This document shows, piece after piece, positions 13,856 through 27,803 of a stretch of DNA of 64,000 nt (position 1 is the first letter of the stretch; every line of letters starts with the position of its first letter). The stretch lies in NCBI GenBank assembly GCA_964016885.1, contig OZ024743.1, positions 341,434,001 to 341,498,000 on the forward strand, written 5' to 3'. The notes under the pieces are model-generated. The model saw only the letters and a program-made list of their open reading frames with translations, made no database searches and had not been told where the DNA came from. Position numbers and translations under genes: made by a program. Source of the stretch: Eledone cirrhosa (taxonomy: Eukaryota).

Positions 13856-13945
13856 TCTTCCTTGTATATATTTCATTAAAGAAATATATTTCACCTTCAA
13901 TCGGTAAACCACAGTAGCCAGGTTTCGGATTTTCAACAAGGAAGA
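13856..13945 (-). ncRNA. Type I hammerhead ribozyme, U3-A8 core variant (UUGAAAA)
   Basis: TCTTCCTTG-TTGAAAA-TCC...GGT-GAAATATATTTC-TTTAAT-GAAATATATA-CAAGGAAGA gives a 9-bp stem I and an AUA triplet. A partial inverted copy lies at ~14085-14122. Confidence 0.72.
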
Positions 13946-14427
13946 AGACATAACTATCTGTGTTTACATAGCAAATTCAAATTTGCGAATGTCTAGTAGC
14001 ACGTGTTGCACTTTTCAAAAATACACACATTGTACCAGCTTCATCTCAGTGGCGTGAGTAGGGTTATCGACAACTAGATTGATGGTGAAATATATTTCTC
14101 TAAGGAAATCTATACAAGGAAGATTAATCCATTTATAAGGTGTCTATTTTTAAAGTTCTAGTTAAACTTTGATTAGTTACCTACATAGCTATGTCTGCTT
14201 TCACACTTTTACAAATTATTCCCTGTGATTGTTTCATTTGTTTATTTTATATATATATATGTCAATCAACTTCTAGTTGATATAAAATGGTCGGATCTAT
14301 TCATTGGAATCTTAGAGCATATTCTACAGTGGATATGGCGCATGTCTCTCTGACATGACACCCTTAATTTCATTTAATTTAATTTTGTATATATATATAT
14401 ATATATGTATATATATATATATATATA

Positions 14428-17400
14428 ACCTTGATCACCTTGACCGACCAGTCTGTCGGGTGTCCATTCGGCGCCGCTGGTCAGAGCACACCGTCAAGTC
14501 CTCTCTGGATCGTGCTTTCCTCATCCATGTAGTCCCAATCATATTCCTAAAATCGTAATTCCACCTTCGTGGAAGCCTTCCGAGTGGTTGTTTCCGCTAG
14601 CGCGGGTACCACTCGTCAACTGCTCGGGTCCACCGATTATCGGTGAACCGGGCGACGTGTCCAGCCCATCTGAACTTGCTGCGCATAAATTCCGGGATAA
14701 CGTCCCTCACACCGGACTTCTGTCTGATGACTTCGCTCCTGGTGTGCTCTCTCAACGAAATTCCTGGCATTGATCTCTCCATGACTCTTTGAGCCGTTAC
14801 CAGCCTCTGCTCTTCTCTCTTCGTTGTAGCCCAAGTTTCACTACCATATAACATTGCAGGTAAAACTGTGCTATTGAAGAGGTTGGCGTGGGGGTCTTGT
14901 CCAACCTCTCCTTGAGCACATCCCTTATGCCGTTGAAAGCCTTCCATCCGGCCCCTACTCTCCGAGATATCTCCCTCTCAATATCTCGGCGCATGTTCAC
15001 TTCTTGTCCCAGGTAGACGGATTTCTCCACCCCCTCTATTTCATCACCGCCAACCACCATTCAACCTGTTGGTACGTTGTCGGACAGCATGAACTTCGTT
15101 TTCATGCGGTTCATCTTGAGGCCTACTGCAGAGCTTTTGATATCGAGCTCCGTCAGCATGGTCTGAAGCTGATCCGTGGTTTCAGCGATGGGTACGATGT
15201 CATCAGCGAAACGGAGGTGGGCAAGTTTCTCGCCGTTGATGTTGACACCGCCATGTCAGTCAATGCCTCTGATGATCTGCTCGAGACACGCAGTGAAAAG
15301 TTTTGGAGAGATCGTATCTCCTTGCTTTACTCCCTTCTCGACCGGCACTCGTACGGGTGATGACACCAGAGCTATGTCGGTGGTGCATCCGGAATTCGCC
15401 ACCTTGAGCAGTTGAACCTATTGCACCTCGACTCCTTGCCTCTGCAGCGAGTTCAGCACTGCGTTGATTTCGATGCTGTCGAAGGCCTTCTCGTAGTCTA
15501 CGAACGTGACGCAAAGAGGCATCTTGTACTCTTTCAATCGCTCAAGCAGTTGTGTCAGAGTAAATATGTGGTCCAACGTGCTGTAGTTCAATCGGAAACC
15601 GGCTTGCTCTCTCGGTTGTTGTTCAGGATTATCTTCGTGAACAGCTTGTACACGTGAGACAGCAGGCATATGGGTCGGTAGCTCTTCAGATCTTCTCTAT
15701 CGCCCTTCTTGTATAGCAGGATGGTAATCGACTCTTCCCACTGCCAGGGTATTTTTCCCTCGCCCAGATAGTGTGTGATTCACTTGACGAGGATTTTCCA
15801 GAGCTGCTCTCCGCCTGACTTCAACAACTCCGATGTTATGCCGTCTTTCCCTGGCGCCTTTCCGCTTTTCATCAAGCCGACTGCTCTTTCGACCCAACTT
15901 ACAATGATGGGTGGCACATTTTCTTCCTGTTGGAGTGACGGCAACGGCTGCACATTCCCGGCAGACTTGAAGAGCTTGGTGTAGAAATGATCGCAAACCT
16001 TTTCCCCCTCACTCTTGTCGCTGACCGGTACTCCAGCTGTGTTCCTCAGGGTCGTCAGCTCCGATCTGTACATTGCCATGTCCCTCTTCCATCTCTTGAG
16101 GCTCTTCTTTTCCTCTGCGACCCTCAGGAGCTTCTCCATCCGGTATGTCTCGAAGTCTCTCTTCAGTTGTTGACTATCACTCTGCTGAGAAGGGAATATT
16201 CGAGGTGATCTTCAGGTGTCCTCTTCATATTCTTCCTCATCTTAAGCAACTTCAGAGTTTCCAGCAAGACTCTTCACCTCCGCTCCCATGGGCACACACC
16301 CTCAACCTTCCTCAAGCACTCCTTCAGTTTCCCTATCAGTGAGTCGTAGTCAGCATCTATGCCGTCTCCCTGACGCCAGTTTTCCTGCATGATGGCTTCC
16401 TGCAGCTGCGCCTCGGACGCGTTCTCCCGTCGACGCCAAATGCAGCGCCTTCTTCTCCCTCGTCCAGTCGATGACGACCTTCGCCCTCACCAGATGATGA
16501 TCACTGCCAGTGTTGAATGGCGTTATGACGGAGACGTCCTGCAGTATGCGTCGCTTGTCGACCAGGATGTATTAGATCTCGTTTCGGTGCTCAGAATTTG
16601 GCGATACCCAAGTCCATCTCTTCTCCTCCTTCTTCCTTAATAGGCTGTTTCCGATGTAGAGCCATCTCGCCTCCGCCATGGTGACCAGATGCTCTTCTCT
16701 CACATTTCTCTTTCCTGGGCCGAATCTTTCGACATACTCTTCCCCTTGCCGTCCCTGTCCGACCTTTGCGTTGAAGTCTCTGATCACGACGGTGTAAGTG
16801 GACCTCACAGCTAACACTTTGTCTAGCTGGCGATAGAATTCTTCCACTTCATCGTCGTCGCTGGCACTTGTGGGAGCGTAGGTCTGGACGATCTTGAGGG
16901 TGGCCTTCCCTGAGAGGTTCACGTTCAGTACACCAATCCGTGACGATATGAACTGGCAAGAAGCGATCTCCGAAGCCCATTCCTTGCTTACGATGAACCC
17001 TATACCTCCGACCGATCTGGCACCCTCTGCTTTACCGAGTCTCACGGCGCATCCATCTTGCCATCGCGAACTCGCCTCCTTCTTCTGGCGGGTCTGGTAC
17101 AGCCCTAACACGTCGCACCTGATCTTCTTCTTCTCCTCCATTAGGTGGTTCAGTCCTTGCTCCCCTGCCAAAGACCTGCAGTTGTAGGTGCATATGGCAA
17201 GGTTAGTCCTATTCCATGGCGGGCTTCGGGAACCTGTGATTCTTAGCAGCCTCTCGTCGCTTGGGTTGCACTACGCCGTCGTGGAGTCGTCCGATTGACG
17301 CGCAGGGTACTGAGGCAATTTTCTTCGTGCTATTTTAGCCATAAGATGACGCCACCCTACTGGCTGGGCGGGCAGACCGGTACCTCTTCAGTTTAGCTAG

Positions 17401-17565
17401 CTTTTGAACTCTAGATGAAGATGAATCATCTCTAGGACCAATAGTCTGATACCTGTGTAGCATGGTAAAACCTGCCAGGACATTGAGTCCGGCTACCATA
17501 GCTATCAGACAGCCAGGGTCACCGCTGCGCCACTTTTAAGGCACTGAAGTAGGATTTTGCAGAGG
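14428..17565 (-). mobile_element. RTE-clade LINE (single APE-RT ORF), near full length, decayed, inserted in (TA)n
   Basis: Fragments QTYAPTS/DFNAKVG/WTW (APE), GKAPGKDGI, EQAGFR, FVDYEKAFDS, VYLGQ, VLPAMLYGSETW and RWAGHV. The 3' end has a short TCAAGGT duplication, and (TA)n lies on both sides. Confidence 0.9.
17386..17565 (-). ncRNA. Candidate HDV-like ribozyme at the RTE 5' end
   Basis: P1 CCTCTGC/GCAGCGG, P2 CTTCAGT/ACTGAAG, P3 GCC/GGC, P4 CTGGCT/AGCTAG with inner GTCTGATA/TATCAGAC, and J4/2 CTAA, all in double-pseudoknot order. Confidence 0.55.
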
Positions 17566-17733
17566 ATATATATATATATATATATATATATATATATATA
17601 TATATATATATATATATATATATATATATATATATATATATATATATATATATATATATATATATATATATATATAAGGAAAAAAGATGAAATCGAAAAT
17701 GCAACTGGAGTCTTTTTAAGAATCTTTATTTGG

Positions 17734-17777
17734 TTCCTTTACTGGTTTCGCAGTTCTTGTGCTTTTCAAAAGTAGAA
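17734..17777 (-). ncRNA. Minimal hammerhead ribozyme, U3-A8 variant
   Basis: CTT-TTGAAAA-GCA-CAAGAAC-TGC-GAAAC-CA-GTA-AAG, followed by AATAAA. Confidence 0.55.
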
Positions 17778-26425: not shown

Positions 26426-27106
26426 GGGACTATAGAATCAGCTTAGGTATGATATATCTTATTACTAATTATATCTAATGTTTCTTCTCTCTTCATAATG
26501 TATTATATAGCTCTGATACTGAATCAGTCTAATCAAATTTGGATTGGTTTGTCCCAGTTATTCATAGAGCAACATCGGTTGAGGTTGGTACCACTAACTC
26601 AGGGATATATGTGGATATATTCATGTGTATGTATGTGTCCGCATGTATCTGTGTGTTTCTCTCTATATATTGTTTATAACTCCCTTTGGTCGAGTAACCT
26701 TTGAAATGTAAAGACTGCTGGATAGCTACCATTACTCATACTTCTCGCCTCCTCAAACCACCTCTTCTTCGGCTTTGATATAAATACTCCCTCCGCCTCC
26801 GTTGTATTTGTTTTAAGGTTATAAGGAGCTTAGCTCTGTTTCTTGACCGCTGTATCACGTGATTGACTCCCCGTCCGCCTTTTCGAGATTCTATCTCGCG
26901 CATCACAGACGTGTTTTGAAACCCTTAATGAGGTATCCTCTTGATAAGTCGCCAGAACCTCACACAAACTCTATATCTCTATGATGTAGTGTTTTTGCAT
27001 AATATGCCATGAAATTACGTGGTCAGGGACTATAGAAGCAGTTTGGGTATGATATATCTTATTACTAATTATATCTAATGTTTCTTCTCTCTTCATAATG
27101 TATTAT
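26426..27106 (+). mobile_element. Monomer-plus copy of the 565-bp-period family with a U3-A8 hammerhead at 26936-27029
   Basis: TCCTC-TTGATAA..TGCCAT-GAAATTACGTGGTC-AGGGA. An ~80-bp terminal direct repeat occupies 26427-26506 and 27026-27106. Confidence 0.7.
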
Positions 27107-27287
27107 GCATATATATATATATATATATATATATATATATATATATATATATATATATATATATATATATAATAACTAGAAATTGATTAACATATAAATA
27201 TACATGAATGATCACAGGAGATAATTTTAGCCCGCGTGTAACCACGCATAGCTAGTATAGGTAATATTTACCTTTAAGTATGATTAA

Positions 27288-27385
27288 CCTTCCTTGTATA
27301 TATCCCATTAAAGAAATATATTTCACCAATTCATCAGATGGTAAGTCACGGAAAGTGGACATTATTGGATTGTCAACAAGGAAAG
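27288..27385 (-). ncRNA. Hammerhead ribozyme, U3-A8 variant (UUGACAA)
   Basis: CTTTCCTTG-TTGACAA-TCCAAT...ATTGGT-GAAATATATTTC-TTTAAT-GGGATATATA-CAAGGAAGG. Confidence 0.78.
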
Positions 27386-27705
27386 TGTAACAATGTCCAG
27401 CCATCCTTCTTTACAGGACGAGCCAAAATCTTCAACTAGCCATCACCACGTGTTGCGTCTACACAACATAGCGGTTTCGCAATTTCGATTTAGATTAAAT
27501 TCATTTAATTTATCTTAATTTTGGATATAGATATATATATATTGCTCCTTAACTGTAGAGCTATTTCTGTTGAAGAAAATTTAACTGCTATTTCTAGTTG
27601 GCAAATACCTATTCACGCCACTGAAACGAAACCGCTATCTTGTGTAGACGGCTAGTTGAAGATGTTGGCTCGTCCTGTAAGGACGGATGGCTGGACATTG
27701 TTACA

Positions 27706-27803
27706 CTTTCCTTGTTGACAATCCAATAATGTCCACTTTCCGTGACTTACCATCTGATTAATTGGTGAAATATATTTCTTTAATGGGATATATACAAGGA
27801 AGG
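27706..27803 (+). ncRNA. Hammerhead ribozyme, U3-A8 variant (inverted partner of 27288-27385)
   Basis: The same motif on the + strand, within the inverted element ~27170-27990. Confidence 0.78.

Follow-up and report, generated by a model that had tools for sequence, protein, structure and literature searches.

Seven UUGANAA motifs in a 64,000-nt window of the Eledone cirrhosa genome (GCA_964016885.1, contig OZ024743.1, positions 341,434,001 to 341,498,000, forward strand; positions below count from the first letter of this stretch) are, with a probability of about 0.8, type I hammerhead motifs in which a U3-A8 pair takes the place of C3-G8; they sit in the terminal repeat of a Penelope-like element (PLE; family C) and in two families with the build of retrozymes (A and B), and their source copies are predicted, and likely, to self-cleave. 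The original prediction for this DNA had recognized the motifs, and its view of U3-A8 as a tolerated natural variant agrees with published work: U3-A8 hammerheads occur in nature and show activity in vitro (Perreault et al. 2011, PMC3088659), and a changed descriptor retrieved about 1,300 U3-A8 matches in the PLEs of Schistosoma (Cervera and De la Pena 2014, PMC4209133). The carriers, a PLE pseudo-long terminal repeat (pseudo-LTR) and retrozyme-like tandem units, were absent from it.

All seven sites read in type I order (stem I 5' arm, UUGANAA, stem II, GAAA, stem III, UH, stem I 3' arm), and at all seven the 3-8 Watson-Crick pair is U3-A8 and U4, G5, A6, A9, G12, A13, A14, the A15.1-U16.1 pair and H17 are in place. 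The U3 residues are at 13936(-), 17769(-), 18778(-), 19343(-), 26941(+), 27376(-) and 27715(+); the positions first reported were motif edges, not core positions, and five of the seven motifs lie on the minus strand (Table 1). The three helices are well formed in this order at six sites, the exception being 26936, whose sequence reads with a C.A at the closing pair of stem I, a C.C in stem II and two G.U in stem III. A scan of the window with a hammerhead descriptor (positions 3 and 8 free, bulges allowed, score of at least 8) misses this site and recovers the other six, its strict form five; 100 local shuffles of the window yield 0.55 U3-A8 matches on average and three at most, and none reaches six. 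The motifs proposed to lie in ordered stems are all present, but 26936 is decayed. The lowest scan score belongs to 17734, whose stem I consists of 3 bp, a bulge and 3 bp and whose stem III palindrome is broken (ACCAGT vs ACCGGT in the family; duplex energy -0.2 vs -10.3 kcal/mol); copies such as these two are probably catalytically dead. None of the seven sites is among the best 150 of the 205 Rfam matches for the window; these 150 are dominated by microsatellite microRNA matches and hold a single hammerhead row (HH9, 35591-35662, below gathering threshold).

Alignment keeps the number of repeat families at three, as proposed, but the split does not follow the seven-letter motif: 13856 (TTGAAAA) joins 27287 and 27705 (TTGACAA) in family A, 17734 (TTGAAAA) is separate as family C, and family B comprises 18716, 19281 and 26936. 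Family A has a long stem I, a U.U followed by a short stem II, a 9-bp hairpin as stem III and UA before the cut; family B has a 5-bp stem I, a bulged stem II, a 10-nt palindrome as stem III and UC before the cut; family C is compact, with a 6-nt palindrome as stem III and UA before the cut. The palindromes of family B and of the common form of family C do not fold on their own; they pair between two copies, at -14.3 and -10.3 kcal/mol.

The assembly (3.0 Gb, 1,796 contigs) is full of (TA)n tracts and retroelements. Exact patterns that leave positions 3, 7 and 8 free match it 1,105 (A), 5,851 (B) and 6,798 times (C), about 14,000 in total, and the reversed patterns never. U3-A8 is found in 97 (A), 99 (B) and 99 (C) of the first 100 matches listed for each family, and C3-G8 in none (hand counts); in the 97 such rows of family A, the free core position 7 varies by subfamily (A in 72, U in 15, C in 8, G in 2) while positions 3 and 8 stay paired. 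Screens based on CUGANGA miss these motifs, as had been foreseen, and with them about 14,000 or more copies.

The hidden U3-A8 class has many members but remains a minority, as seen in 80 evenly spaced 10-kb stretches (800 kb, 70 of the stretches from the four largest contigs) scanned at score 11: C3-G8 gives 80 matches in 29 stretches, with none in controls, and U3-A8 gives 13 matches in eight, with five in reversed and two in shuffled controls. The share of U3-A8 is thus 14% (bootstrap 5-28%), or about 1 in 7, canonical matches prevailing by about six to one; the 13 comprise eight of family B, two of a further family and three that are chance-like, and five intact-core copies of family C fell below the score threshold. 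The large hidden population that was originally envisaged therefore exists in its thousands of copies, but does not predominate; the search with positions 3 and 8 free that had been advised does find six of the seven sites in the window and U3-A8 in the 800 kb, but as an approach it was already published (PMC4209133). For canonical motifs, the sample extrapolates to about 300,000 per genome (176,000-453,000), or about 100 per Mb, a rough estimate that tandem arrays and the selection of contigs make too high. Hammerhead density in this genome is very high: the rough extrapolation exceeds the 126,247 hammerheads reported for the much larger axolotl genome. An excess of G3-U8 in the sample (60 matches) was set aside, all of it coming from one 101-nt satellite (GTGAGTA...GAAATA, locus L176) that is probably a chance mimic.

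Both states of the 3-8 pair occur within family A. A looser pattern finds, genome-wide, 1,726 copies with U3-A8, where its reversed form finds none, 211 with C3-G8 (counted with a spacer of 12-42 instead of 20-50, which covers the ~38-nt spacer of these copies), 28 with U3.G8 and 32 with C3.A8; the two positions are paired in 1,937 of 1,997 copies, and the 60 single changes (3%) compare with about 420 expected under independence. Change within the family is thus paired, not single, as the original prediction had it. The subfamilies of family A are only 69-81% alike, yet core and stems persist; position 7 and loop 2 change freely. The stems covary as well: between 13856 and 27705, alignment gives U-A vs C-G at the outer stem I pair and U-A vs U.G in stem III, and a C-G of stem II is replaced by U-A in 17 of 18 rows of the CTGATGA subfamily (hand count, 100 rows listed). 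In a tree of 81 of 88 copies (seven truncated ones left out, positions 3 and 8 masked, rare classes enriched; midpoint root only, bootstrap not fully settled), the nine C3-G8 copies group in a single clade (100/96), its end branches being about 0.05 long, the U3-A8 subfamilies form a ladder with shorter branches, and U3.G8 and C3.A8 copies both occur near the C3-G8 clade. Less firmly, family A would seem to have switched once, from C3-G8 to U3-A8, a direction that we infer.

The carrier of family C is recognizable from its surroundings. Its copies run upstream into an open reading frame (ORF): in 10 of 29 loci a GIY-YIG frame lies on the strand of the motif, ~0.9-1 kb upstream of it, and Pfam on this ORF gives GIY-YIG at 33.5 bits (cut-off 22.6) and RVT_1 at 27.6 (cut-off 29.6, just under). 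At one locus, L128, the motif occurs in two direct repeats (3696 and 8179), 4.5 kb apart, around the ORF. Family C is thus the pseudo-LTR of a PLE, which has a CxxxxCxxC linker and is Neptune/Nematis-like by the description in PMC8557442, not by tree; its motif fits directly with the U3-A8 minimal hammerheads of the Cercyon PLEs (PMC4209133).

In families A and B, the upstream sequence common between loci is another copy of their own unit. These units are non-coding and head-to-tail, with one hammerhead each and tandem periods of 531-532 nt in A (unit ~531 nt) and 565-593 nt in B (13 rows), family B arrays reaching five units at 591-595 nt; no consistent ORF of their own lies upstream in the 82 family A and 28 family B loci examined, a sample of the copies. 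Families A and B have the build of non-LTR retrozymes: animal representatives, proposed to be non-autonomous derivatives of PLEs (Cervera and De la Pena 2020, PMC7229834; Li et al. 2026, bioRxiv 10.64898/2026.07.22.740005), likewise consist of non-coding head-to-tail units of low G+C with one type I hammerhead each, occurring as monomers to multimers. At 531 and 590 nt, the units are longer than typical retrozymes (~300 nt), yet inside the 51-972 range of Li et al. 2026. Family A and the axolotl HHR_Amex2 are alike in the U.U at the base of helix II, a mismatch that is tolerated there (PMC3088659). The units of A and B, known here from DNA alone, carry the U3-A8 core, which the accessible text of PMC7229834 and Li et al. 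2026 does not mention for retrozymes.

It is improbable that A and B are instead terminal repeats of coding PLEs with unsampled bodies, and not free-standing retrozyme-like elements. PLE ORF fragments do stand beside A or B in several loci, adjoining them directly with little or no microsatellite between at L124, L043 and L123, and PLE ends normally show partial tandems and inversions; the fragments, however, are of mixed orientation and spacing, the sequence common to the loci upstream is the previous unit and holds no ORF, the arrays of family B extend head-to-tail over as many as five units, and the neighbouring PLE family has a canonical CTGAAGA motif of its own in its own 3' repeat. Common (TA)n targets explain most of the neighbourhood between PLEs and families A and B, and the three close junctions hint at template switching by a PLE enzyme. 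The adjoining PLE, a very young family with 37,293 first-look candidates genome-wide (in the endonuclease part, 150 scored copies are 97-100% identical; frames are open over as much as 1,167 aa), has a compact canonical hammerhead and inserts at (TA)n; it was also considered as the element of which family A is the terminal repeat, and rejected: besides having its own motif, it is accompanied by family A in one of 25 loci, the seed locus.

Published elements of the same kind suggest how free-standing units A and B and the PLE of family C may work. In the place of C3-G8, U3-A8 would form the Watson-Crick pair by which nucleotide 8 is positioned, and source copies would release RNA of unit length from read-through transcripts or tandem ones; families B and C, with a bare palindromic stem III, would do so as dimers between tandem copies, and family A, whose stem III is a true hairpin of 9 bp, could do so as a monomer. 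Once released, the monomers of A (~531 nt) and B (~590 nt), linear or circular, would serve a Penelope-like reverse transcriptase as templates for copying into (TA)n targets, from which the partial tandems and 5' inversions would arise. Two findings on circular forms are not used as evidence: contigs of 621 nt and 171 nt from public runs, none of those listed being recorded as RNA, go round the family B unit, as would be expected equally of tandem DNA and of a circle, and circular folding of A and B monomers gives weak z-scores of -2.2 to -3.1 (25 shuffles only).

Several observations weigh against this account. For 27705, ViennaRNA predicts a rival fold in which stem II has a pair probability of 0 and relative to which the hammerhead fold costs ~6.6 kcal/mol (stems I and III are predicted at 0.72-1.0, and the energy model leaves the core unscored); in this fold U3 pairs with A17, extending stem I, the counterpart of the C3-G17 pair that is inhibitory in hammerheads (PMC3884650). 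Published PLE hammerheads cut poorly in vitro, and the activity of families A and C may be low. The pair table of family A represents one paired switch inherited by many copies, not independent events, and subfamilies with a single change have been amplified, one with C3.A8 and a shared marker to 13 copies at seven loci, the other with U3.G8 (TTGACGA) to nine copies at eight loci; transposition for a few rounds does not therefore strictly require a matched pair. A C3-G8 sister of family B has no matches genome-wide under the pattern tried, family C not having been searched for one, and no autonomous partner with family A or B sequence was found in the sampled loci.

The amplified single-change subfamilies, the rival fold and U3-A17 pairing predicted for family A, and the low in vitro activity of PLE motifs would all suit descendants of real hammerheads that are catalytically dead or nearly so, U3-A8 having reached fixation through drift in a small number of master copies and the elements having spread without cleavage, much as Naiad elements spread without canonical hammerheads (PMC8557442). 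This is nevertheless unlikely, if somewhat less so than the terminal-repeat origin of A and B: both halves of the pair have changed in family A while mismatched states stay so rare, core and stems outlast the divergence of subfamilies in which position 7 and loop 2 are free to change, and U3-A8 ribozymes are reported to be active (PMC3088659). Chance matches in AT-rich repeats might be suspected from the AT-richness of TTGANAA and GAAA, and from the control background in the genome sample, which is highest for U3-A8; they are refuted for families A and C, and overall next to negligible, given that no shuffle attains the count in the window, that family A has a sister subfamily with the canonical core, and that family C is at a known hammerhead position of a PLE.

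The U3-A8 hammerheads in these carriers most closely resemble the U3-A8 variant of minimal hammerheads in the Cercyon PLEs of Schistosoma mansoni (PMC4209133), with U3-A8 in terminal repeats, thousands of mostly solitary copies, a palindromic helix III and inverted neighbours 100-700 bp apart; unlike there, the host and the PLE family are others, copies are about ten times as many, and family A has a full hairpin as helix III. With the examples of Perreault et al. 2011 (PMC3088659) they share the compensatory U3-A8 pair and the tolerated U10.1.U11.1 mismatch, but those are few and scattered, whereas here whole families of high copy number are involved, one with a C3-G8 sister subfamily. A literature search, largely without subscription papers and supplements, gave nothing on U3-A8 in retrozyme-type tandem units, on a 3-8 switch within a family, or on hammerheads in such genomes. 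Lunse et al. 2017 reportedly treat PLE hammerhead variants, and Przybilski and Hammann 2007 are said to treat 3-8 exchanges; either may already describe similar families. The U3-A8 variant is thus not new, and the modest extras are the switch within a family and the sheer density of hammerheads.

Table 1. U3-A8 hammerheads of the window and the insertions that carry them.
Feature	Position	Strand	Description
Family A hammerhead, older TTGAAAA subfamily	13856..13945	-	9-bp stem I, short U.U-opened stem II, 9-bp hairpin stem III, UA end; predicted cut 13865/13864
Family A compound insertion	13692..14385 (approximate)		Minus copy, then 5'-truncated plus copy with hammerhead 3' half only; (TA)n flanks
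Family C hammerhead, min-type	17734..17777	-	Palindromic stem III broken in this copy; predicted cut 17740/17739
Family C stub: 5'-truncated 3' pseudo-LTR of Penelope-like element	17675..17875 (approximate)	-	Between (TA)n tracts
Family B hammerhead	18716..18783	-	5-bp stem I, bulged stem II, 10-nt palindromic stem III, UC end; predicted cut 18721/18720
Family B hammerhead, second tandem copy	19281..19348	-	565 nt from 18716 copy
Family B partial tandem, non-coding, ~1.4 units	18645..19452 (approximate)	-	Between (TA)n tracts
Family B hammerhead, decayed or older copy	26936..27029	+	Stem I closing mismatch
Family B diverged copy, slightly more than one unit	26420..27105	+	~82% to young copies
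Family A hammerhead, young TTGACAA subfamily	27287..27386	-	Inverted partner of 27705
Family A hammerhead, young TTGACAA subfamily	27705..27804	+	10-bp stem I, U.U + 5-bp stem II, 9-bp stem III; predicted cut 27794/27795
Family A compound insertion	27170..28035 (approximate)		Inverted copy and near-full plus-strand unit; (TA)n at end

The window scan also gives 12 canonical C3-G8 motifs. Eight of these belong to an eight-copy array of 422-bp units at 38313-41311 (-), a typical non-LTR retrozyme with a canonical CTGACGA hammerhead per unit, to which an inverted pair at 21564-21606 (-) and 22131 (+) is related. Hammerheads of other families, canonical or decayed, are at 13021(-), 46256(-), 62161(+), ~19518(+), ~19785(+) and 35591-35662(+), those at ~19518 and ~19785 being read by eye and matching a family in loci L170 and L210. 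Two more U3-A8 families, with TTGATAA and TTGAGAA cores and both with UC ends, were met at L147 (3174 +, 2773 -) and L166 (5916 +, 5590 -), and the window contains the 3' half of the second as an inverted pair at 21160-21280. A C17 end is found in three of five U3-A8 families, a small number of families, vs two of 80 canonical matches; this excess fits avoidance of the U3-A17 mispair.

Other retroelements surround the hammerhead families. A 5'-truncated Penelope-like fragment at 22960-25470 (frame 24021-24623) has long inverted repeats of its 3' part; the descriptor scan finds no hammerhead in it, Pfam finds no family in its frame, and it is unlinked to A, B or C. Decayed retroelements of the long interspersed nuclear element type, with a tRNA-like piece of a short interspersed nuclear element within an inverted repeat, are at 14430-17540 (-), 177-4973 (-), 5749-10328 (+) and 20100-20280.

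A bolder reading, tentative and short of an even chance, would take A and B as active U3-A8 animal retrozymes, whose self-cut circular RNAs of ~530 and ~590 nt would be copied by a Neptune-like Penelope enzyme, in a genome with a few hundred thousand hammerheads, family A keeping a compensatory switch from C3-G8 to U3-A8 together with the ancestral and both single-change states. The genome-wide counts in any case mean that CUGANGA-only screens miss whole high-copy families, here about 14,000 or more motifs, and the matched natural variants that family A offers on one backbone (C3-G8 211, U3-A8 1,726, U3.G8 28, C3.A8 32) make it easier to test what hammerheads do for Penelope-type elements. If the retrozymes are active and the switch is preserved, this natural series of variants would allow a test of whether the copy number of a mobile element is driven by its cleavage rate.

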